From an uncultured virus (IMG/VR IMGVR_UViG_3300028883_000045) (Duplodnaviria > Heunggongvirae > Uroviricota > Caudoviricetes): DNA of 20,000 nt. Below the pieces are notes generated by a model. It saw nothing but the letters and a program-made list of their open reading frames with translations, did no database searches and was not told where the DNA came from. Shown piece after piece: positions 6,333-20,000 of this stretch (its first letter is position 1; each line of letters begins with the position of its first letter). Where the stretch lies: IMG/VR virus record IMGVR_UViG_3300028883_000045; one strand, written 5' to 3'. The position numbers were made by a program, and so were the translations under genes.

Positions 6333-6544
6333 GTGTCACCTCCCTTGTGATAGCTTACGGTGAACTTGCCGTTCTGTTTGTTGTACCTGACGATCTTGCT
6401 GATTTGCGCGCCGTCGATGTCGACGCACATCCGGACGATCTTCCCGGGTTTGTTCTTGAGGCCCTCCCGAAGCGCCATTTTTAGAGACTGCATCACGGTC
6501 ATGATCGATTTTGCGATCAGCCGCTCCCGTTCCTCAGGCGACAT
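6329..6544 (-). CDS. Hypothetical basic protein
   Basis: 71 aa ORF tightly packed between neighbours. Confidence 0.6.
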   Translation of the reverse strand: MSPEERERLIAKSIMTVMQSLKMALREGLKNKPGKIVRMCVDIDGAQISKIVRYNKQNGKFTVSYHKGGDT

Positions 6545-7208
6545 CCACCGTTACTTTCGTGCTGAACGCTCGCGCGAGCTCTCGCGCCCGATCCCCGGAC
6601 CACTTCTCGAACATCTTCGAGCCCAGAACCTGGGCGTCGAGCATGCTGTTCCAGTTGACCACCCGCAGCGTGTTGTCGCGAAGGCTCACGATCAGCCCGA
6701 GAGCGCGGCGCAGGTAGATCCAGTTCTCCAGCGCGTCCAGGTCGCCTTCCTCTATCGGGTCGTGGAAGATGAAGGTCGCGATCTGGAGCGGCGGGTTGCG
6801 CTGGAAGACCTCGCCGCGCAGCAGCGCGTCCACGGACATGACCTCTTCCAGGTTGCGCCGGTGATCGATCACGCGGATGCGTTCCCCGCGGTCGGCAAGG
6901 CCGGTGCTCCTTATGGCCTCGTCGATGCGGAAGAGCGCATCGTCGGTCATGCGCCACACGTCGAAGGTCGGCGACATGCCCGGCGCCCTTCGGAACCGGA
7001 TCCAGCCGCGAACCAGCGCGCGCTTGATCAGGCGCTCCCGGTTCATTGCTGGGCCCTTCGGGCCGGCGGCCCGCTCTTCGGGCGTGAACATGATGTCCTC
7101 GATGGTCAGCCCGAACACGTCGGGGTGCTTCTTCATGTAGTTCAGGTGCTCGTAGATCTCGATGGCCTCGCCCGTTGGCGACAGCCAGTATCCGGTTCCC
7201 TGGGGCAC
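6534..7208 (-). CDS. Hypothetical phage protein
   Basis: 224 aa; GYWLSPTG...H...P..FGL...GWIRFR motif; AAGGAGGT RBS directly after a strong promoter. Confidence 0.75.
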   Translation of the reverse strand: MPQGTGYWLSPTGEAIEIYEHLNYMKKHPDVFGLTIEDIMFTPEERAAGPKGPAMNRERLIKRALVRGWIRFRRAPGMSPTFDVWRMTDDALFRIDEAIRSTGLADRGERIRVIDHRRNLEEVMSVDALLRGEVFQRNPPLQIATFIFHDPIEEGDLDALENWIYLRRALGLIVSLRDNTLRVVNWNSMLDAQVLGSKMFEKWSGDRARELARAFSTKVTVDVA

Positions 7209-7234
7209 TTGGGACCTCCTTTCGGCGGGGTCGT

Positions 7235-7263
7235 ATTGTACCTCCGCAGAAGTCAGAATTCAA
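7235..7263 (-). promoter_or_regulatory. Sigma70-type promoter
   Basis: TTGAAT (7263-7258), 17 nt, TACAAT (7240-7235): near-consensus in a GC-rich background. Confidence 0.75.
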
Positions 7264-7445
7264 GAATTCTGCAGGCGTTTCTCGGCCTTGGCCCACTGTG
7301 CCTGGGCGTGGCGAACCTCCAGCTCGAGTTCCTGTATCCGGCGGCACGCCGGAGAGCGTTCTCTCCGGTAGACCGATCCGCACTCGAAACCCTTCTTGCC
7401 CAGGGGCAGTTTGACCTCGGGCATTCCGCAGTAGGGGCAGTTCAT
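7260..7445 (-). CDS. Small Cys-rich (zinc-binding) coiled-coil protein
   Basis: MNCPYCG...FECGS...SPAC then heptad-like tail; ATG at 7445 with AAAGGAGA RBS. The longer track ORF reads through the guide array. Confidence 0.7.
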   Translation of the reverse strand: MNCPYCGMPEVKLPLGKKGFECGSVYRRERSPACRRIQELELEVRHAQAQWAKAEKRLQNS

Positions 7446-7470
7446 CGCAGGATCTCCTTTCAAGGGTTGG

Positions 7471-7711
7471 TGGAGGGCAACACAATTATGGGCTTCATTG
7501 ATATCCCGGCCCTCCAGAAAAGCTGAAGGGGGCACAGCGGTCCTGGGCTTCAGTGTATCTATGGCCCCCTTCTCAAAATCAACGGGATGGGCAACGCACT
7601 CTTGGGCTTCATCGGTGTTCTGGCCCACCCCAAAAACATCTCCCTCAAGACGCGGCTTCGGAGGAACGAGCAGGGATCCCTTGGTGCTCACAGTAGTCTT
7701 GGCTCTTCCTC
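7471..7711 (-). ncRNA. TIGR (tandem interspaced guide RNA) stem-loop array, downstream block, 4 units
   Basis: Units 7471-7516, 7525-7572, 7584-7631, 7661-7711. Each reads (minus) stem-GCC[A/G]-9 nt-TGAAGCCCA (TGAGCACCA in the 7661 unit)-9 nt-TG-stem, with complementary flanks; all spacers exactly 9 nt and different. Confidence 0.9.
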
Positions 7712-8499
7712 GCTTCCACCCACAGTTCTCTCAGGAGCCTCTTGGCCACGTAACGGTGCGCCCGCTTGTGGGCGTGGCCGTTTGTGATCTCCGGGTTCTT
7801 TTCCTTCTCGTAGGCCTTGCGTTCATCGTACAAAGCCTTGTACTCCGGATTGCCGCATCGGAGAGCTCCGACGTCCACAATGCTGAATATCTCTGCCCGG
7901 CGGTGCTTGACGTTGGAGATTTCTGCCCACTCCTGGGCATCCGGGTTGTGGTTCCTCCAGCTCGGACAGGTGTACGTGGAGGGAGCCTGACCCTTGTGGA
8001 CGTGCAGGGCGAAACGCTTCCACAGCTTCCCGGGGTTGGAGTATCCCAGAAGATCGCCGGACTCTCCCACGATGCGGGCCAGGCCCATGGCGGTGAAACC
8101 TTTCTTGGACGCGAACCAGGAGTAGTAGGGAAGAGTCTTGGCCAGCGTTTCCATCCGGGATTCGATCCCTGCTCGATAGACGTCGTAGCCTATCCGGGCC
8201 TGCTGCGTTTGCTTTATGAAGGCTATCACGTCATCCGGGTTTGCCCGGAAGTCTTCGGGGAAGGGGGCCGGCTTGTTCTCCTCCACGGCCTTGATCACCT
8301 TCCCGGCGGCAACCCAGACCTTCTTGCGGCTTTTCTCGTCCATGGTGGTCTGGTAGCCGAAGAACCGGGCGACGAGAGCCTGACAGCCGTTGTTCATCTT
8401 GATCTGCATCTTGATGGAGCTCTTGCGCAGACTCTGAAGTTCTTTGAGAGTCTGAAAGACATCACTCGTTTGGAATTCAGCACCGCGTTGGTCTTTCAT
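7645..8499 (-). CDS. tasA: TIGR-associated Nop-domain protein without a nuclease domain (TasA-like; IS110 C-terminal-domain relative)
   Basis: 284 aa: N-terminal coiled coil, then KGFTAMGLARIVGESGDLLGYSNPGKLWKRFAL and YKALYDERKAYE...GHAHKRAHRYVAKRLLRELW (IS110 Transposase_20/Nop-like). No DEDD RuvC or HNH domain seen; flanked on both sides by dual-spacer arrays. Confidence 0.85.
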   Translation of the reverse strand: MKDQRGAEFQTSDVFQTLKELQSLRKSSIKMQIKMNNGCQALVARFFGYQTTMDEKSRKKVWVAAGKVIKAVEENKPAPFPEDFRANPDDVIAFIKQTQQARIGYDVYRAGIESRMETLAKTLPYYSWFASKKGFTAMGLARIVGESGDLLGYSNPGKLWKRFALHVHKGQAPSTYTCPSWRNHNPDAQEWAEISNVKHRRAEIFSIVDVGALRCGNPEYKALYDERKAYEKEKNPEITNGHAHKRAHRYVAKRLLRELWVEARKSQDYCEHQGIPARSSEAAS

Positions 8500-8522
8500 C
8501 GTTTTCTCCTTTCAAGGGTTGG

Positions 8523-8758
8523 TGGAGGGCATCGGTCCCTTGGGCTTCAGTGCGTCTCTGGCTCCTTCTCAAAATCAACGGGATGGGCACCGCAATGGTG
8601 GGTTTCAGCTAAGGAATGGCCCATCCCAAAACCTCCTATGCCGGAAAAGCTAAAGGGGGCACGGCCATTTTGGGCTTCAACGCAATTGTGGCTCCCTTCT
8701 CAAAATCAACGGGATGGGCACCTCAATGTTGGGTTTCACGGACTCTTCGGCCCATCCC
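8523..8758 (-). ncRNA. TIGR stem-loop array, upstream block, 4 units
   Basis: Units 8523-8568, 8580-8627, 8653-8698, 8711-8758; same architecture with loop repeat TGAA[G/A]CCCA, 9+9 nt spacers and U-rich linkers (GTTGATTTTGA). Confidence 0.9.
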
Positions 8759-8766
8759 AAAACCTC

Positions 8767-9276
8767 CTATGCCGGGGGAGCTGTCCGGGCCAGCTTGGTC
8801 TTGATCCGGTCCAGGACCCCTTCCAGCTTCTTGTCGGTGAATACCTGGTCCACCCGCTTCTTGCCTGCTTTCCGGCCCACCGCAGTATAGAAGTCCCGGT
8901 TGAGCTGCTGCCCCAGCATGTCCGTGTGAGCCTTTTTCGCCATTGCCAGCACTTCTTCGCCGGTCATGTCCCCGAACCGGCTGCCATTGACCACCATCTC
9001 CAGCAGGCTGTGTTTCTGGGATGCATCCCGGGCTTCCGAGGCGGCCGCAGCCGCCACGGCCAGCCCCCCGGTTCCCCTCCTGCAGAGAGTGGCCTTGCCT
9101 TTGGCCTGTCTTCGGATGCTCTGCCGGTACTTGTAGAGGACGGCAGAAGCCCCGTGCCACTTGATTTCTTTTATGGCGATGGGGTTGCCCGTGGCCTTCT
9201 TGAGGATGTGCTTCACGGCCTCCTCGGTGTCGGTGCAGAGCTCGCTGGCTTCTTGAACGATTTCGGACAGGGTCAC
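8767..9276 (-). CDS. Hypothetical helical protein immediately upstream of the TIGR array
   Basis: About 169 aa from GTG 9276 (AAAGGAGAAG RBS); its stop lies 8 nt before the first guide unit. Confidence 0.75.
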   Translation of the reverse strand: MTLSEIVQEASELCTDTEEAVKHILKKATGNPIAIKEIKWHGASAVLYKYRQSIRRQAKGKATLCRRGTGGLAVAAAAASEARDASQKHSLLEMVVNGSRFGDMTGEEVLAMAKKAHTDMLGQQLNRDFYTAVGRKAGKKRVDQVFTDKKLEGVLDRIKTKLARTAPPA

Positions 9277-9307
9277 TGCTGCTTCTCCTTTCTGAGCCAC
9301 GTGCGGC

Positions 9308-9547
9308 TCATGTCAACGCTTCCGGTAGCTGGCCCGCGAGAGCCAGCGGCTTTTCGAAGTGTTCCCTGACGCTCATCTTCTTGCGCCCCTTGCAGACCGG
9401 GCAAAGGCAGCGCGAGGGGTCCCAGCCCAGAGACCGCGCGTAATTGTCCATGTGCTCTCTCCGCCTGATGCCCGAGTCGCTGTAGGCGTAGCACCCGCAG
9501 CCGTTGCACTGCATGTGCCAGCTGTCGTTGCGCCAGAAGAGGCTCAT
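9308..9547 (-). CDS. Small zinc-finger protein
   Basis: CNGC...GW...LCPVC; ATGA overlap with the upstream stop. Confidence 0.65.
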   Translation of the reverse strand: MSLFWRNDSWHMQCNGCGCYAYSDSGIRRREHMDNYARSLGWDPSRCLCPVCKGRKKMSVREHFEKPLALAGQLPEALT

Positions 9548-9879
9548 GACGAATGCTTCTCCTCCCACAGCGCTCGGCACTTCGGGCACCGTGCATGCAG
9601 CAGCTTGCGCGCCGCCTCGACGTCCACCCGGGCGTTCAGGTGCTCGGGCGGCAGGTACGAGAAGTCGGGCTGCTCGATGGGCGTCTTGTGTCCCGCGAAC
9701 GTCGCGGCCAACTCGTCATGCCGGCGCTTGTAGGCCAGGGGTTCTATGGCGTTGCCGGCCACGCGGCCGGCGATACTGTGTCGCTTGCGCCAGTTGTGCT
9801 CGTGCTTGTGATACTCGTTGTGCTCGCCTGACCGGTGCTGCAGGCACATTTCATCCACCGGCTGCATCCACATTCGCAT
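9544..9879 (-). CDS. Pyrimidine-dimer DNA glycosylase / endonuclease V-like protein
   Basis: MRMW...MC.QH..GEH.E.H N-terminus and RHDEL...H.TP, plus C-terminal RCPKC; resembles the Pyr_excise family. Confidence 0.7.
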   Translation of the reverse strand: MRMWMQPVDEMCLQHRSGEHNEYHKHEHNWRKRHSIAGRVAGNAIEPLAYKRRHDELAATFAGHKTPIEQPDFSYLPPEHLNARVDVEAARKLLHARCPKCRALWEEKHSS

Positions 9880-12486: not shown

Positions 12487-12738
12487 CTACTTGGGGATCG
12501 GTATGTCGTGCTCTTCCAGCCACTTGACCTCGGCGGCCAGGGCTTCAGCTCTCAGGGGATAGGGTCCCATCACGGAGGGCCCGCCCACGGGGGACAGGTC
12601 CACATTCCAGCCGCCGCCGGGCGCCGGCTCAACCCGGCTCGCGCGCGCAACCCGGGCCTCGCCCTCTTCCAGGAGGGGGGCGAGTTCGTCCTTGTAGATC
12701 GCTCGCAAGGTCCCGTTCGGGTCGATGATGATCTCCAC
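12487..12738 (-). CDS. Conserved small protein associated with DUF1257/DUF2997 operons
   Basis: IIIDPNG...IY...RASRVEP...W..DLSPVGGP..GP...R.EAL.AEV.WL. Confidence 0.75.
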   Translation of the reverse strand: MEIIIDPNGTLRAIYKDELAPLLEEGEARVARASRVEPAPGGGWNVDLSPVGGPSVMGPYPLRAEALAAEVKWLEEHDIPIPK

Positions 12739-12739
12739 C

Positions 12740-12931
12740 TTAACCCCCTCTCTGCTGCAGCCTTGTGTTCTGCGGGCGCTCTCTGTATTCGTTGGTATGC
12801 TTGCGCTCGGCGACCTTCCCGAGGGCTTCTTCGAGGTCTTTGGTCATGGCCTCGTAGCCCTTGCCCTTTACTCCATTGACCTTGATGGAGGTCGATCCGT
12901 CGGGCTCGATGGTGATTTCGATCTTGGGCAT
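12740..12931 (-). CDS. DUF2997 domain protein
   Basis: IEITIEPDG...V.GVKG..YE..TK.LEEALG.V......EY. Confidence 0.85.
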   Translation of the reverse strand: MPKIEITIEPDGSTSIKVNGVKGKGYEAMTKDLEEALGKVAERKHTNEYRERPQNTRLQQRGG

Positions 12932-12943
12932 ATGCGCTCCCTC

Positions 12944-13387
12944 CTACTTGGTGCAGGTCAGCTTGATCTGACCGGTCGCGGTGACCGACTTCTTGATCCG
13001 GTAGCCCTCGCGCTGGAGCTTCTTGAGCTTCTTGCGCGCGACCTGCTCGGCGTACCCCTGCACGAGGTGCTGGCCGCCCGGGCCCATGACGCCCTCCAGG
13101 CTCCGGCCGTGCGAGCCCCAGAAGTCGTAAAGCAGCTGGTAGCCGTCCTCGACGCGGACCACCCCGCACTCGTAGGCCAGCGGATCGCCGGCGACCGCCA
13201 GGGCGTGATCGCACTTGCCCATGTCCTCGGTCGTGAACCCCTCCGGGATCGGATAGTCGCCCACGTGACGGCCGTACCACCGGTACCGTTTCTGGTTGAG
13301 CCGGACCTCCATCCCGAGTTCTTGGGCCGCCCGAAAGAGGCAGTCCAGGTCTTTGATCTTGAGTTCGAGCGAGACAACGTGAGACAT
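12944..13387 (-). CDS. DUF1257 (Ycf35-like) protein
   Basis: MSHVVSLELKIKDLDCL..A..ELG...GY.L.YDFW...L.Q.YA...GY; next to DUF2997 and a Ycf46-type ATPase. Confidence 0.85.
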   Translation of the reverse strand: MSHVVSLELKIKDLDCLFRAAQELGMEVRLNQKRYRWYGRHVGDYPIPEGFTTEDMGKCDHALAVAGDPLAYECGVVRVEDGYQLLYDFWGSHGRSLEGVMGPGGQHLVQGYAEQVARKKLKKLQREGYRIKKSVTATGQIKLTCTK

Positions 13388-13401
13388 GGTCCACCCCTTT
13401 C

Positions 13402-14343
13402 CTAAAGGCTCATTCTGCGGGCACCGCGGCCGGCCATTCGGTCCGCGGCGGCCTGCATCGCGTCCGCGGCGCTCTGGGCGAGCTCATCCCGGAGAGGCTG
13501 CAGCCCGGCGACCAGTATCTCGCCCTGCTCTTTCTGCTGGTCGGTTTCGAAGTTCGCCGCCCGATCGATAACCTGGCGCATCTTGTTGATCGCCTCGGAG
13601 AGCTTCTTGTCCCCGAAGATGTTCAGGGACTCGATCTTGTCGCAGACTGACTTGGCACTGTTGTAAGTCTTCTGCGTGAGCTTGCCGCCCTTGGCGACCA
13701 GGGTCAGGACGTCGGTCATTTTCTCGTCGACCTCGGCCCGCAGCCGGTTGACCATGCTTTCGAGGCACTCTTCGACCGCGTTGGACTCCCCGTCGGCCAG
13801 CGTCCCGTCCTGCGGCGGGGAGATGCTGAACCACTTCCACCGCAGACTGAACTTCGAATGGGCCCCCGCCACGCTCGGGTACTGGGCCTCGATCCGCTGC
13901 ATGGCGCTGTTGACCGCGTCCGTGTTGCGCGCGGCTTGGGAGAGGGCTTCGCGGATCTTGACGAGCATCTCCTTCTTGTGGGCCTCGTACCCCTCGCAGA
14001 ATTTCTGGACCTCGGCGGAAAACTGACCGCTGAGCTTCTGCAGCTGCTTGTCGATCTGGTCCCTCTTGGCCTTGGGGATGTACCGCGAGCCCTGCACCAG
14101 GGGGAAGGGGATGGAGTTTTCGTCCAGGAGCTTGCGGGCCTCGTGCGCTACAGTGCGGATCGGCTTCAGGTAGTCCTTGGACACGAGTCGCTCGTGTCCG
14201 AACGTGAGGGCCGCGCGGATCGCTTCGCTCCGCGTGATGCCGAGATCTTCGGGCCGGGTCCTCGTGAGCCCGGCGAACTCGGAGATATCCAGGTCGCAGA
14301 GACTCCCCTGTGAGAACAGGTCTGCGAAAGTCAGTTTTGCCAT
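13402..14343 (-). CDS. DUF3150-like helical protein
   Basis: 313 aa; LDIS...EDLG...G..RL...AR..L...S.PF....RYIP...F...YE...YP......KF...LN.FGD..L; position in the module fits. Confidence 0.6.
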   Translation of the reverse strand: MAKLTFADLFSQGSLCDLDISEFAGLTRTRPEDLGITRSEAIRAALTFGHERLVSKDYLKPIRTVAHEARKLLDENSIPFPLVQGSRYIPKAKRDQIDKQLQKLSGQFSAEVQKFCEGYEAHKKEMLVKIREALSQAARNTDAVNSAMQRIEAQYPSVAGAHSKFSLRWKWFSISPPQDGTLADGESNAVEECLESMVNRLRAEVDEKMTDVLTLVAKGGKLTQKTYNSAKSVCDKIESLNIFGDKKLSEAINKMRQVIDRAANFETDQQKEQGEILVAGLQPLRDELAQSAADAMQAAADRMAGRGARRMSL

Positions 14344-14357
14344 TGTCTCGTCCTCCT

Positions 14358-15947
14358 TCAGAGTCCCATCCGGCGGGTTTCCCGCCGGAACTTCTCACCC
14401 ATGCACTTGGGGAGGGTGCTCGCCGGGCGGCAGCGCTCTTCGCCGAAGCGCTGGATCCGCTCGATCTGCTCGGCCATGGTGCGGGAGAGCGGTACGGAAA
14501 CCCGGGCCGCGCCCACGAGGTCCTTGGTCTTGACCTCCCGGTCCTCGTAGAAGGCCGCGAACATGCCGTCATGCACGCAGGCCTCGATCTCCGCGCCCAC
14601 GAATCCGTCCGTCGCCTTGGAGATTTTCTTGAGGTCGAACTTCTCGGGATCGCGCCCGGCCGCACGCAGGTGCACGGCCGCGATTTCGGCGCGCTCGGCA
14701 TCGGTCGGCATGCCGAGATAGAAGAGCTCGGACCAGCGCCCCTTGCGCAGGAACGGGGCCGGCAGGTGCCAGGGTTCGTTGCTCGTGGCCAGCAGGAACA
14801 CGTCCGACTTGTGTTCCTGGCTCCAGGTCAGAAGCGAACCCATGAGCCGCGCGCCTACGCCGGAGTCATGCGCGCCCCCGCCGGAGGTTCCGGCCAGGGC
14901 CCGCTCGACCTCGTCCAGCCACAGGATGCAGGGCGCAATCGCATCCGCCAGCGCCAGGGCCTGCCGGGTGCGGGCTTCGGTCTCGCCCACAAGCGAACCC
15001 ATGAGCGCGCCGATATCGAGCCGCAGGGTCGGGACGTTGAAGAGCGCGCCGGCACACTTGGCCGCGAGCGACTTCCCGGTGCCCGGCACTCCGCAGAGGA
15101 ACACGCCCTTGAGGCTCGGCAGCCCGTACTCGCGGGCCTTGCGACTGTAGCACTTCGACCGCGAACCGAACCAGTCTTTCAGGCAGTCCAGCCCGCCGAT
15201 CGCTTCCATGCCGCGCGGGTCGGGTTCAATGACCTCCATGAGTCCGGAGCGCTTGACCGCGGCGGCCTTCTCTTCGTAGACCGTGCGGGCGCTCATGGTC
15301 CGCGTCTTGCCCTCGCCCTCGCCGACGATGATCGCGAGCCCGTAGGCGTTGCGGGCTTCGGGCTCGGTGAGTCCGGTTGCCGCGCGGACCAGGTCCTCCC
15401 GGTGACCGTTTTCCAGCTTGGTAAGCTCGATCCCGTTCTCGGGCGCGTCTGCCTCGATCTTCCCGAGGATCGCCGTCAGCTGGTCGTAGTCCGGAAGCGA
15501 GAAATCGACCACCGACACGTAGCGCTCGAAACTCGCCGGGATCTGGAACTCGACGCCCAGGAAAATCACGGTCAGCCTGTGCTTCTCGGCGGCCATGCAC
15601 AGCTCTTTCAGGCGGCGCTCGTCGTAGGGCGACAGGTCCTTGACCCATGCGTGAAAGTCGGCCATGATCAGCAGGCCGGCGTCGTCGCCGCAGCGCTTCA
15701 TGCCGGCCAGGAACGCCTCGGCGCAGCCGGAGGGATGCTTGGCTTCCTCGACGTCCTTGATCTCAGCTTTGAAATCGTTCACCGCGCGGCCTTGCGTGAT
15801 GCCGGTGGTTGCGGTCCACTCGAAGAAGTTCAGGTCCCCCTCTTCGGCTACGTCCAGGAGCACTCCGAAGGCGCGTGACTCTTCGACGGTCCGGATCGCC
15901 ACGGCGGGATATCCGGCCTTACTGTAGTTCAGGATTTTCTGGTGCAT
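14358..15947 (-). CDS. AAA+ ATPase, Ycf46-like
   Basis: GYP...T.EE.R N-terminus, IGGLD.LK.W, Walker A GVPGTGKS, Walker B ILWLDE, SRH ATSN...LRKGRWSELF, GFVGAEIE, VPLSRTM.EQI. Confidence 0.93.
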   Translation of the reverse strand: MHQKILNYSKAGYPAVAIRTVEESRAFGVLLDVAEEGDLNFFEWTATTGITQGRAVNDFKAEIKDVEEAKHPSGCAEAFLAGMKRCGDDAGLLIMADFHAWVKDLSPYDERRLKELCMAAEKHRLTVIFLGVEFQIPASFERYVSVVDFSLPDYDQLTAILGKIEADAPENGIELTKLENGHREDLVRAATGLTEPEARNAYGLAIIVGEGEGKTRTMSARTVYEEKAAAVKRSGLMEVIEPDPRGMEAIGGLDCLKDWFGSRSKCYSRKAREYGLPSLKGVFLCGVPGTGKSLAAKCAGALFNVPTLRLDIGALMGSLVGETEARTRQALALADAIAPCILWLDEVERALAGTSGGGAHDSGVGARLMGSLLTWSQEHKSDVFLLATSNEPWHLPAPFLRKGRWSELFYLGMPTDAERAEIAAVHLRAAGRDPEKFDLKKISKATDGFVGAEIEACVHDGMFAAFYEDREVKTKDLVGAARVSVPLSRTMAEQIERIQRFGEERCRPASTLPKCMGEKFRRETRRMGL

Positions 15948-16414: not shown

Positions 16415-16603
16415 TCACGGGCGCCGGCGAGTCCGGCGCCGCCTCTTGGAAGAACTCCAGCGCGCCCGGTCGGCGCGCGACGCGTAACTCCAGGACTCGG
16501 CCCGCCGCGCGGCCCACAGGTCCGGCAGCATTCGCGCGGCCTCGCGCGGGTGGCAGTAGGCCCGGGCGGCGATTTTCTGAGAGAGCTTTCTGGTCTCGAT
16601 CAT
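16415..16603 (-). CDS. Hypothetical protein; 3' part doubtful
   Basis: GGAGGACG RBS and ATGA overlap support the start; the Arg-rich tail looks out of frame. Confidence 0.4.
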   Translation of the reverse strand: MIETRKLSQKIAARAYCHPREAARMLPDLWAARRAESWSYASRADRARWSSSKRRRRTRRRP

Positions 16604-17214
16604 TTCCCGTCCTCCCCCTGCATGAACTCCAGTCCGAAATCTTCGCGATTCACCATGGCCGTCATGACGACCGCCGTCGCGCCGGACTCCCCCTTGATCA
16701 ACAAGGGTCGTGTGTCACATTCTTGGCAGGCGCGGAACCCCAGCCCCTCGAATATTTCCAGCGCCGCGGACAAGTACGAGTGATCGAAGATTGGGAATTT
16801 CTCACGGTCCATGTTAATACGCTTGGAGTAGCGGAGGGTCAGGGCGGCCGCGAGGGCTTCAGGCAAGTGGCAGCGCGCGACCTCGATCCCCATCGACTCC
16901 GGCGGGATCACCGTGCGCCAGTCGGGATACTTCAGCGTGCCCTCGGTGTTCTTCTCCAGCCATAGCACCGTCTTGGTACGCTTGCGGACTTTCCACAGGG
17001 CGGTTTTTCTGAGGGACTCGGGGACCTTGTCAGCCGGAAGCTCGTAGGAGTGCAGGCGCCGCGCGTCGCACCCGACAACGTGTAGCTTCTTGCGCTTGAG
17101 CTCGGTGCGCAGATTTGACAGGGGGTCGCCCCGGGAGTCTCCCTCGCGCACGGCCCCGGATACCCACCGTAGGGCTTCGAACGCAGCGCAGGTTTTGCGG
17201 GTAATCTCGATCAT
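16600..17214 (-). CDS. DNA polymerase III beta-clamp-like protein (short, about two domains)
   Basis: 204 aa from ATG 17214; DSR..L..L...VVGCDARRL, KYPDWRTVIP, FDHSYL..AL, PLLI...AVVM correspond to DnaN motifs (ATDGHRL, G.YP.Y..VIP, FN..YL.D.L, vvMP). Confidence 0.7.
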   Translation of the reverse strand: MIEITRKTCAAFEALRWVSGAVREGDSRGDPLSNLRTELKRKKLHVVGCDARRLHSYELPADKVPESLRKTALWKVRKRTKTVLWLEKNTEGTLKYPDWRTVIPPESMGIEVARCHLPEALAAALTLRYSKRINMDREKFPIFDHSYLSAALEIFEGLGFRACQECDTRPLLIKGESGATAVVMTAMVNREDFGLEFMQGEDGK

Positions 17215-17444
17215 TTCTCGTCCTCCATCTTGGCCATGATTGCGCGGGCTTGTGTCATTTCGTCGCTGTAGTCGATCAGCGTCTTCTCGAGGCACTTGAG
17301 CAAAACCTTGCAGGTTGTCAGCAACTTGTTGCGTTGCCTTTTGACCTTGCACAACTTGCAGACCTCGACCTCGTCGCGGTCGAGCACGATCGAACAGTCG
17401 GTGCAGTAGCGCGAGCTACTGACATATACGTCCTTTGGATTCAC
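17211..17444 (-). CDS. Small zinc-finger/helical protein
   Basis: CTDC...CKLC then LL..CK.LL...ARAIMAK; GTG 17444 with GGAGGACG RBS. Confidence 0.65.
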   Translation of the reverse strand: MNPKDVYVSSSRYCTDCSIVLDRDEVEVCKLCKVKRQRNKLLTTCKVLLKCLEKTLIDYSDEMTQARAIMAKMEDEK

Positions 17445-17946: not shown

Positions 17947-18595
17947 TCTCGTCCTCCTTCTGGGCCCCGGAGGGCCTGCCGTTCTTGGGTTCCGCGTGTT
18001 ACGCCACCCGTCCGTCTTCCACAAGCTCGCACATGTCCGCATCGACGGCCGCGCGCGCCTGGGACAACATGTCTTCGCGACCGTAGAAGCCCCAACACGA
18101 ATCTATATCTCGCCCCCGGTGCGTGACCACGTAACCCCACACGTCTCCCCGCAGATACTGGTCGAACGCCTCGACTTCGGAGACCAGACACTTGCGGGCG
18201 GCCTCTTCGTCGTCCCCGAATTCCTTCTTGACCGTCTCGCGGTCCGCGTAGATCCAGCCGACTTGTCCCGAGTCCCAGGGGCAGCGAAAACCGGTTATGT
18301 TCATAGTCAGCCCCGAGTGGTCGTAGAGGTAGAGGGGCAGGACAACCAGGTCGTGCTCCCGGCGGTACTCTTCGAACTCTCCGGGGGAACTGAACTCGTG
18401 TTCGTCTCCCAGCCTATAACGCGAGTGGAAGCAGACCATGGTGCCGAACGTGTCCCACTCTCTGGGCGACTCTCCGCAATCGTCTCGCTCGATGGAAATC
18501 TTGTAGCCGTTATAGTCAATGACGTCCTGCATCTCTCGTCCTCCATCTTGGCCCCGGAGGGCCTGCCGTTCTTGGGTTCCGCGCGTTACGCCACC
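17947..18595. repeat. 62-bp direct repeat pair (17947-18008 and 18534-18595) flanking one gene
   Basis: 3 mismatches in 62 bp; each copy ends in the RBS of the downstream gene. Confidence 0.9.
17999..18532 (-). CDS. Conserved uncharacterised phage/ICE early protein
   Basis: 177 aa from ATG 18532; SPREWD..G, LPLYLYDHSG, WDSGQVGWIY, DQYLRGDVWGY, DSCWGFYG motifs. Confidence 0.8.
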   Translation of the reverse strand: MQDVIDYNGYKISIERDDCGESPREWDTFGTMVCFHSRYRLGDEHEFSSPGEFEEYRREHDLVVLPLYLYDHSGLTMNITGFRCPWDSGQVGWIYADRETVKKEFGDDEEAARKCLVSEVEAFDQYLRGDVWGYVVTHRGRDIDSCWGFYGREDMLSQARAAVDADMCELVEDGRVA

Positions 18596-18644
18596 TGCCC
18601 GGGGCATTACATCCCCGCCGAGGCGGGGGCGGCTCTGCCGGGGC
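18551..18644 (-). ncRNA. Degenerate twister-like RNA (copy 1)
   Basis: GCCCCG-GCA-GAG-CC-[P1 hairpin]-UAA-UGC...CGGCAGGC...CGGGGC; P4 is poor. Confidence 0.3.
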
Positions 18645-18902
18645 TCAGGCCAGTTGATAGTACATCGGCAGGCCCATCGCATCACAGTGGCCCTCTACTG
18701 CCTCGCCGTCGGCCACCATCGCCCGCAGGATCGACTCCTCGGCCTCACTCTCGGGATAGAGCGCATGACTGGCTCCCTCGCCGGTGAGTGCTAGCCGCTC
18801 GACCATGCCGCGGATCTCTGCCGCAGTCGTGCACGGCGCGTGGTGCTCATAGGGCCCGCTGATGTAGCTGGTCATGCTCATGATGCTAGTTTCAAGTTTC
18901 AT
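18645..18902 (-). CDS. Hypothetical 85-aa early protein, copy A
   Basis: ATG 18902 with GGGAGG RBS; 7 aa differences from copy B. Confidence 0.75.
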   Translation of the reverse strand: MKLETSIMSMTSYISGPYEHHAPCTTAAEIRGMVERLALTGEGASHALYPESEAEESILRAMVADGEAVEGHCDAMGLPMYYQLA

Positions 18903-18934
18903 GGTCTCTGCCTCCCTCTCTCTCTGCGGACCAT

Positions 18935-18988
18935 TCCGCGACCCGGGCCGCGTGCCCGGGTTTCGCCGTTTACGGCTCGTCAGACGGA
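18935..18988 (-). ncRNA. Hammerhead ribozyme, type I
   Basis: UCCGU-CUGACGA-GCCG UAAA CGGC-GAAA-CCCGGGC ACGCG GCCCGGG-UC-GCGGA: complete core, three stems, GUC triplet; predicted cut between 18940 and 18939. Confidence 0.9.
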
Positions 18989-19267
18989 CTTGACCGCTTC
19001 GGACTGGAGCTTGGCCGCCCTTGAGGCTATTTCGGCCCTGAGACCGTCCCAGCCGCCGAAATGGCTGCAAATGGCCAGGAGCTCGCGCTTGGCTTCGGCG
19101 AGGGACCGGCCCTTGGAGACGCCGCACCCGCTCGCCTCGTGCGTGATGATGTAAATTCCCCGCTCGTCCCTGCGGTACCAAAGACCGACCCTGCCATTGT
19201 CAAACTTGCGCAACCTGTGCCCCTCGACTTGTGTTTGCCCTTCCGGTGCGGTGATTGTGAATTTCAT
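18980..19267 (-). CDS. Hypothetical early protein
   Basis: 95 aa, AAAGGAG RBS; its UGA stop is part of the hammerhead CUGA. Confidence 0.7.
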   Translation of the reverse strand: MKFTITAPEGQTQVEGHRLRKFDNGRVGLWYRRDERGIYIITHEASGCGVSKGRSLAEAKRELLAICSHFGGWDGLRAEIASRAAKLQSEAVKSV

Positions 19268-19273
19268 GGCGTG

Positions 19274-19324
19274 CTCCTTTCGTCCTCGTTTGGGCTCGTC
19301 AGTGCGGGGACATCCCGCAGAGGG
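19274..19324 (-). ncRNA. Hammerhead ribozyme-like motif, type III topology, degenerate
   Basis: CCCUC-UGCGGG AUGUC CCCGCA-CUGACGA-GCCC AAACGA GGAC-GAAA-GGAG; core intact, stem II has one C-A mismatch, stem III is very short. Confidence 0.5.
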
Positions 19325-19348
19325 TGGGGGATTGCTCCCCCGGTGGTG

Positions 19349-19468
19349 CTAGTCGGTGGCTTTGGCGATGGCTGCCTCGGCTTGCCGTAGGGCATTCTCG
19401 CAACCGGGTCCGATCACAGTCTCATCCAATGCCTGCCACGGTTCCGGCGTGTGCGTGTGCTTGCTCAT
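19349..19468 (-). pseudogene. 39-aa mini-gene, apparently an internally deleted member of the HTPGPW...AAIAKA phage family
   Basis: MSKHTHTPEPW start and AEAAIAKA end without the usual middle section; GGGAGG RBS. Confidence 0.45.
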
Positions 19469-19514
19469 GGTCTCTGCCTCCCTCTCTCCGCCCGGGGCCC
19501 ATCCCCGGACTGCG

Positions 19515-19580
19515 CCCGCCGTGACTTGCCGCACGGCCGGGGCATTACACCCCCGCCGGAGCGGGGGCGGCTCTGCCGGG
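19515..19580 (-). ncRNA. Twister ribozyme-like RNA, P5-type permutation (copy 2)
   Basis: CCCG-GCA-GAG-CC-GCCCCCGC UCCG GCGGGGGU-G-UAA-UGC-CCCGG-CCGUG CGGCAAGU CACGG-CGGG: P1, P2, P4, P5 and the T1 pseudoknot (CGGC/GCCG) pair; T2 is imperfect. Confidence 0.55.
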
Positions 19581-19582
19581 GC

Positions 19583-19840
19583 TCAGGCCAGTTGATAGTA
19601 CATCGGCAGGCCCATCGCATCACAGTGGCCCTCGACTGCCTCGCCGTCGGCCACCATCGCCCGCAGGATAGCCTCCTCGGCCTCACTCTCGGGATAGAGC
19701 GCATGACTGGCTCCCTCGCCGGTGAGTGCTAGCTGCTCGACCATGCCGCGGAGCTCTGCCGCAGTCCTGCACGGCGCGGAGTGCTCATAGGGCCCGCTGA
19801 TGTAGCTGGTCTGACTCATGATGCTGGTTTCGATTTTCAT
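19583..19840 (-). CDS. Hypothetical 85-aa early protein, copy B (first gene after the promoter)
   Basis: ATG 19840 with GAGGGAG RBS. Confidence 0.75.
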   Translation of the reverse strand: MKIETSIMSQTSYISGPYEHSAPCRTAAELRGMVEQLALTGEGASHALYPESEAEEAILRAMVADGEAVEGHCDAMGLPMYYQLA

Positions 19841-19899
19841 TTTGTGCTCCCTCTCTCTCCCTCTCTGCTCTCCTGGGACCGCGCGGTCCCACCATGGAC

Positions 19900-19927
19900 A
19901 GTCTATCACGTGTCCAGGCTGAGTCAA
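19900..19927 (-). promoter_or_regulatory. Sigma70-type early promoter
   Basis: TTGACT (19927-19922), 16 nt, TG-n-TAGACT (19905-19900); AT-rich UP-like tract upstream; hairpin TGGGACCGCGCGGTCCCA (19874-19891) at the predicted transcript 5' end. Confidence 0.7.
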
Positions 19928-20000
19928 GGCCCCTATTGAGATTTTTTGAGAACATTTGACACTCGGAGCCCGTAGAGGCGCCCAAAGCACCGGGCGGGCC

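Follow-up and report, generated by a model that had tools for sequence, protein, structure and literature searches.

The window considered here, a single stretch of 20,000 nucleotides from an uncultured virus, carries on its minus strand a compact cassette in which a gene for a 169-aa protein, referred to below as the partner, lies upstream of tasA, with units of paired 9-nt spacers placed on both sides of tasA and within it. The features are given below in window coordinates, the spacers (A and B) being written 5' to 3' on the minus strand.

7442-9307, minus strand: whole cassette (partner, upstream array, tasA, downstream array), 1,866 bp, with a 4-bp ATGA stop/start overlap at both ends
8767-9276, minus strand: partner gene, 169 aa, GTG start, AAAGGAG ribosome site, no named family
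8711-8758, minus strand: unit 1 (u1), core 8719-8750; A 8747-8739, B 8729-8721; 9-bp stem
8652-8699, minus strand: unit 2 (u2), core 8660-8691; A 8688-8680, B 8670-8662
8580-8627, minus strand: unit 3 (u3), core 8588-8619; A 8616-8608, B 8598-8590; frame shared with u1
8522-8569, minus strand: unit 4 (u4), core 8530-8561; A 8558-8550, B 8540-8532; stem poor
8505-8531, minus strand: 27-bp block with ribosome site, identical to 7453-7479
7645-8499, minus strand: tasA, 284 aa, coiled coil and Nop domain, without nuclease domain
8452-8499, minus strand: unit 5 (u5), core 8460-8491; A 8488-8480, B 8470-8462; 7-bp stem; inside the disordered N-terminus of tasA
7663-7710, minus strand: unit 6 (u6), core 7671-7702; A 7699-7691, B 7681-7673; inside the C-terminal tail of tasA
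7584-7631, minus strand: unit 7 (u7), core 7592-7623; A 7620-7612, B 7602-7594; spacer A differs in sediment run X3 (see below)
7525-7572, minus strand: unit 8 (u8), core 7533-7564; A 7561-7553, B 7543-7535
7470-7517, minus strand: unit 9 (u9), core 7478-7509; A 7506-7498, B 7488-7480; AT-rich pair

A stem-loop TIGR array and a nuclease-free TasA

The units follow the motif CC[AG]-N9-TG-N4-CC[AG]-N9-TG, in which box C is CC[A/G], box D is TG and the spacers lie between box C and box D. A motif scan of the 20-kb window finds it nine times, always on the minus strand and always within 7478-8750, against a chance rate of 0.235 per 20 kb, with a maximum of 2, in 200 Markov resamples. All 16 spacers listed in the original prediction are recovered on this strand, in the order given and between box C and box D, and the eight pairs into which they were grouped had been read correctly; the true count is nine, the unit at 8460-8491 (codons 3-14 of tasA) having been overlooked. 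This unit, u5, has the spacers A = ACGCGGTGC and B = AACGAGTGA and a stem of 7 bp, and the single amino-acid change of the stretch in the relative P0001 (residue 9) hits the loop and no spacer.

Palindromic arms flank the units, with 7-9 consecutive pairs in 6/9 and one mismatch or bulge in a further two; a stem is thus present in 8/9 units, that of u4 being poor. The 5' arm of u4, in the frame of u2 and u8, is joined to a 3' arm in the frame of u9, so this unit is probably a recombinant, and in X3 two intact units stand in its place. As the flanks are palindromic stems, the array is of the stem-loop type of TIGR and not of the dual-repeat type; the units are spaced 55-72 nt apart in three different frames, and the constant edge repeats and 36-nt period of dual-repeat TIGR are not found. 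Folding of whole units strongly beats shuffles in only one of the eight units folded, u5 being outside this set. Amongst 64 related loci, 35 have at least three stem-flanked units on the sense strand and one has them on the other strand. By eye, U runs precede most stems of the window array, with CUU in some; actinophage arrays have a clear CUU motif. One copy of the 27-bp block precedes tasA and the other a 61-aa gene at 7260-7445.

The 284-aa protein matches TasR (PDB 9MTY) with an E-value of 3.8e-6 in phmmer and the NCBIfam model TIGR_Tas_endo with an E-value of 1e-16 (61.6 bits, below the cut-off of 100), and the ten best rows of a Foldseek search are TasR and TasH (PDB 9MTY and 9W04) at TM 0.50-0.58. 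The predicted model (pLDDT 88) is all-helical, with helix 1 starting at residue 11 and low confidence at both ends. Pfam gave no match, a nuclease domain is absent, and the N-terminal DEDD/RuvC domain of IS110 is missing from both model and alignment. Because it is without a nuclease domain, the protein is TasA in its nuclease-free form. The identity of the system as TIGR, assumed from the outset, is supported by the occurrence together of a Nop-domain protein with a coiled coil and an array of paired 9-nt spacers.

A contig of 76 kb encodes a protein identical to this TasA. Genes of phage replication (SNF2 helicase, VRR-NUC, gp33-like, AAA ATPase) flank tasA, and a search of IMG/VR found no near relative of tasA or of the neighbouring helicase. 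Of the tasA relatives with known context, the closest (64% identical; L001, 960-1430, from a contig of 43% G+C) is directly followed by what we take from its motif to be a RuvC-type resolvase-like gene. Elsewhere in the window, the sole sigma-70-like site within 7200-9700 lies just 3' of the cassette (7235-7263) and is directed at the gene 6534-7208, and an AAA ATPase, a DUF3150 protein and three small genes form a module on the minus strand at 12487-15947. Within 18500-20000 a stretch occurs twice, some 940 bp apart; the small proteins encoded by the two copies (18840-19079 and the corresponding portion of 19583-19990) are nearly identical, and the patch of the window richest in A+T (19825-19960) lies beside it.

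The partner gene and the cassette as a block

The partner has no significant match in Pfam, PHROGs, NCBIfam or the sequences of the PDB. Its predicted model (pLDDT 88, pTM 0.55) has two helical domains with a flexible linker and no recognisable active site; no clear match was found amongst PDB folds, the best reaching Z 6.3 over one helical hairpin, which is not proof of a new fold. The ParB family is neither amongst the Pfam matches of 38 partner members nor amongst the folds listed, and the model is all-helical. A fold search of viral models returned a 166-aa protein of phage Omega at E 0.35, which we infer from its equal length to be the product of the gene upstream of Omega tasA, and the Atlas returned only unnamed viral clusters. 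The family is large, with 5,317 relatives or clusters at 50% identity (a count of the family, genomic context apart); its members are 12-24% identical to the window copy, and in the best 150 clusters the median length is 173 aa and a core resembling L-G-G-x-x-L-G-D-A is conserved.

It is the position of this gene that is constant. At one related locus (L028) a homolog, 28% identical over 144 aa, lies just upstream of the array, and a profile iterated from this homolog and the window copy finds the partner in 52 of the 64 related tasA loci (E < 0.001, values which are inflated since these same loci went into the profile, and loci which include near-duplicates; position is unaffected), always on the same strand and, counted from the tasA match, at most ~1 kb upstream. 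The same profile finds nothing elsewhere amongst 12,102 ORFs and has 0 matches in the reversed ORFs. Eleven of the 64 loci are without any partner match, three of them with less than 200 nt and two with less than 1 kb of upstream DNA, and the partner is not detectable at six tasA loci with ample upstream DNA or at two loci of cultured phages. Amongst cultured-phage loci outside the profile it occurs in 7/9, twice weakly; the partners of Omega and Peregrin were missed by the whole-record profile search and appear in a local search at E 0.002 and 0.016. Searching from the partner side, both new loci have tasA and an array, and four genomes have one partner copy each, while tblastn with two single partners returned nothing in cultured phages. 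We found no longer, fused form of the partner, which is weak evidence. At five loci (L025, L026, L030, L031 and L052) partner and tasA occur with no units that fit the motif, and the boxes there may differ. Taken from this linkage, the partner is most likely a dedicated second component of the system.

The cassette also behaves as a block. Three marine sediment runs contain most of the window, and two of them may be where it comes from. In one of the three, X3 (compared at 80% likeness), one contig joins 7441 to 9308 and skips 1,866 bp, which are precisely the arrays, tasA and the partner gene, and the join restores the ATGA stop/start overlap of the flanking genes. Depth in this single sample is 9-15 inside the gap, 42-45 outside it and 25 at the joint, the shorter side of which has only 26 nt and falls under the caution line of the method. 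Part of the X3 population lacks the cassette as a whole, and 7442-9307 contains no integrase or transposase.

About 80 cultured mycobacteriophage records have the system, and their spacers are hypervariable. The genes of cluster A1 mycobacteriophages labelled 'transposase' or 'hypothetical' are TasA together with the partner (6014-7518 of L086, NC_023726.1 gp70-gp71, and L117-L125), and the A1 arrays are hypervariable stem-loop arrays with CG as box D, one unit of which has a hairpin in its loop. In Omega (L090, NC_004688.1 gp21-gp22) the cassette lies on the opposite strand amid head genes, with units on either side of the two genes.

Spacer turnover and the search for targets

The two units before tasA have other spacer pairs in X3, and spacer A of u7 is changed there at 2 positions, the loops being unchanged amongst the rows listed. 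Compared with the A1 phage Euphoria, the array region of 79 mycobacteriophage records is at least 99% identical in 5, 80-90% in 12 and 60-80% in 62. Spacers A and B stay together in inheritance (19 pairs from 19 A and 19 B), and some pairs are related at 12-17/18 letters, which argues that spacer change is in part stepwise. These observations support the view that the spacers behave as variable guides within frames that are fixed between strains. The window spacers are also more alike than shuffles, 8/153 pairs being identical at 6/9 or more against 1.8 expected (p 0.0008), and 6 against 1.6 when u3 is left out; the likeness in the window is the strongest amongst 23 arrays and is absent in most of the 22 related ones. 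It may come from copying inside the array or from a family of related sites. Four spacers, one A and three B (8508-8747 and 7480-7602), share ATTG-N-G at the same positions, and u1 and u2 resemble A/B-swapped relatives (11/18). Apparent resemblances between spacers and CRISPR repeats, rRNA, sigma-54 sites or restriction sites were set aside as probably due to chance.

The targets had been predicted as spacer A followed by the reverse complement of spacer B, the two spacers reading opposite strands of one 18-bp site, and this geometry fits the published TIGR structures as derived from two papers. In the passages covered of PMC12045711 cleavage follows a C-5 rule and leaves 8-nt 3' overhangs; with A plus the reverse complement of B as the top strand, a cut placed 5' of the base that pairs with spacer position 5 yields such overhangs, and the reverse order yields 5' overhangs. 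The part covered of the PlTasA structure report places the first base of each spacer at the outer unwinding junction (10.64898/2026.08.11.744272), from which the same order follows. One sentence of the PMC12045711 passages gives the cut side the other way round, and these passages also state that gaps of 1-2 bp in the target are tolerated.

The predicted sites had moreover been described as AT-rich and promoter-like. The first description holds for the last site, that of u9, which has 5/18 G+C, a value as low as that of 0.15% of the 18-mers in the window; the other eight have 9-12/18. The second finds no support, as it could concern one site of nine, a site with no match in the window and 11 scattered matches in IMG/VR.

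Throughout our searches the control was the crossed pair, in which A and B come from different units. The earlier report of no full self-target in the window stands: the best match, over gaps of 0-2 and four geometries, has 3 mismatches, and 5/72 crossed pairs reach the same. More generally, when paired matches were compared with crossed pairs, as had been proposed, no test run gave an enrichment, the window representing 20 of ~76 kb of the element. Against 1.06 Mb of related loci the nine targets give one match with 2 mismatches. IMG/VR was scanned for exact matches to three of the nine targets, and those of u7 (with its X3 variant) and of u5 gave 0. The u9 target occurs there in 11 stretches from 7 unrelated groups of 31-46% G+C, four at gap 0, five at gap 1 and two at gap 2; these matches are chance-like, and gap 0 is not preferred.

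The related arrays extend this picture. When 114 units of 23 arrays, the window included, are compared with their own loci, 1/114 match at 2 mismatches or fewer against 1/317 crossed pairs; at 3 or fewer the true pairs (10/114) stand slightly above the crossed ones (16/317), and wrong geometries give 9, 8 and 5 of 114. Thirty-four units compared with five complete genomes of their own phages give one match at 2 mismatches or fewer, crossed pairs 5/228. For 24 distinct A1 pairs in ten complete genomes of A1 mycobacteriophages the figures are 1/24 against 12/355 at 2 mismatches or fewer, and 6/24 against 142/355 at 3 or fewer, from a parser that caught 32 units, which is below roughly five per phage. 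One A1 target is found with 1 mismatch in 2/151 Mycobacterium genomes, where chance is estimated at ~1.4 and the reversed control gives 0. One A1 target also occurs in 7 IMG/VR stretches, all at gap 1 and six from one family; judged from sequence their context is unlike that of a mycobacteriophage, and we take them as chance.

Since the units of relatives match their own genomes no better than crossed pairs do, self-targeting in this clade is unlikely. This bears most directly on the reading in which the guides aim at sites in the remaining 56 kb of the element and TasA is a programmable repressor of the phage's own genes. Repression of transcription by TasA is described in the part covered of 10.64898/2026.09.09.750476, the window is only 20 of ~76 kb, and the mutual likeness of the spacers is what a family of related operators would produce; yet in 15 cultured phages with the system, searched over their complete genomes, self matches are not above crossed pairs, hypervariable spacers in near-identical phages do not suit fixed self sites, and most of the 22 related arrays are without the internal likeness. 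We regard this reading as highly unlikely.

The guides could instead match relatives' alleles of the phage's own genes, which would differ from self mostly at silent positions. The match of u7 to the gene 16600-17352 at 16951 is of this form, spacer A being perfect and the 3 mismatches comprising 2 silent and 1 non-silent change, and one sample (X3) also contains a relative without the cassette. However, 2/72 crossed pairs equal or beat the u7 match, spacer A of u7 is altered in X3, and across 10 kin genomes, each of which bears the cassette, the 24 A1 pairs are not enriched, so that targeting of kin appears unlikely.

It might also be that no DNA target is maintained, that the spacers drift and that the cassette is selfish or addiction-like, with a toxic partner neutralised by TasA-RNA, or that the guides act on RNA in the manner of box C/D RNAs. 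The empty target searches, the point-by-point change of spacers in place, a likeness amongst spacers that fits copying, the apparently recombinant u4 and the strict linkage of a small gene of unassigned function would all agree with this. Spacer length and boxes are nevertheless exactly kept and A and B pass on as pairs; in the passages covered, stem-loop TasA binds dsDNA via both spacers (10.64898/2026.09.09.750476; 10.64898/2026.08.11.744272) and TasR is inactive on RNA (PMC12045711). This explanation we hold to be very unlikely.

By exclusion, foreign targets are left, and on balance we favour an accessory phage cassette of partner, stem-loop TIGR array and nuclease-free TasA that acts on foreign or host targets. 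A single transcript would be cut to hairpin guides of ~50 nt, one guide would be loaded per TasA dimer, and its spacers A and B would each pair with a different strand of the 18-bp site. The complex of TasA and guide may then block transcription or replication without cutting, by analogy with other stem-loop TasA, for which repression and DNA binding are described in the passages covered of 10.64898/2026.09.09.750476 and 10.64898/2026.08.11.744272. The spacers would change in place to keep pace with fast-changing foreign DNA in the same host. Our first choice for the targets is competing phages or plasmids, to which we give close to an even chance; host genes are a second choice with a distinctly smaller one. 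The partner, to go by its linkage, would most likely be helical and serve as cofactor or effector, working either alongside TasA on the DNA or on the precursor of the guides. A further suggestion, tentative and rather doubtful, is that the clade is a two-protein system in which the partner, found only next to tasA wherever its context is known, writes or diversifies the paired spacers, turnover being seen in the cluster A1 phages of Mycobacterium smegmatis, a system open to culture, or is the effector that gives nuclease-free TasA its output.

Relation to known systems

In the passages covered of PMC12045711 and 10.64898/2026.09.09.750476 the natural targets of TIGR and the origin of its spacers are stated as open, with no adaptation protein known, and our literature search, which covered its sources in part, found no paper on the upstream partner or on natural TIGR targets; preprint supplements and the unreleased TIGRSafari may contain one. 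What the natural targets are is not settled by reading 18-bp sites from a single metagenomic array, because such sites arise by chance in large collections.

The closest known systems are the stem-loop TIGR-TasA systems PlTasA, BlTasA and MbTasA (PMC12045711; 10.64898/2026.09.09.750476; 10.64898/2026.08.11.744272). As far as the passages covered describe them, they share with the present system a solo Nop-domain protein, two 9-nt spacers between boxes C and D with a 9-nt loop and palindromic arms, and units on either side of the gene and within it; intragenic guides and repression are likewise already described in those parts of the literature (PMC12045711; 10.64898/2026.09.09.750476; 10.64898/2026.08.11.744272; 10.64898/2026.07.30.739390; PMC12385481). 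The present system differs from them in its conserved upstream gene of no named family, of which these passages make no mention, in a cassette that is both present and absent in one population, and in stems preceded mostly by U runs, the CUU motif not being clear.

The sole partner named for TasA in the part covered of PMC12045711 is a ParB-like gene, TasParB, which like the partner described here forms an operon with tasA. That gene occurs with dual-repeat arrays, whereas our partner, which has no Pfam or PDB match, occurs with stem-loop arrays. The survey that reported TasParB grouped neighbours at 50% identity (PMC12045711, passages covered), and the partner family, only 12-24% identical to the window copy, would escape a survey of this kind.

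Dual-repeat TIGR-TasR and TasH (PDB 9MTY, 9W04) have the same Nop fold and coiled coil, but here there is no RuvC or HNH domain and hairpin units replace the edge repeats. The IS110 recombinases show a weak likeness in the Nop part, and relatives of TasA are labelled 'transposase' in GenBank; TasA differs in having no DEDD domain, in its many-guide array and in a score of 19.6 bits against a cut-off of 140.

The original prediction was a correct reading of a known system, to which the analysis adds a partner gene, a cassette both present and absent in one population, and a model that can be grown. A dedicated partner may be what supplies the missing function. Because many cultured phages of a laboratory host carry this cassette, with spacers that are hypervariable, the targets and the origin of the spacers can both be tested by ordinary phage genetics.
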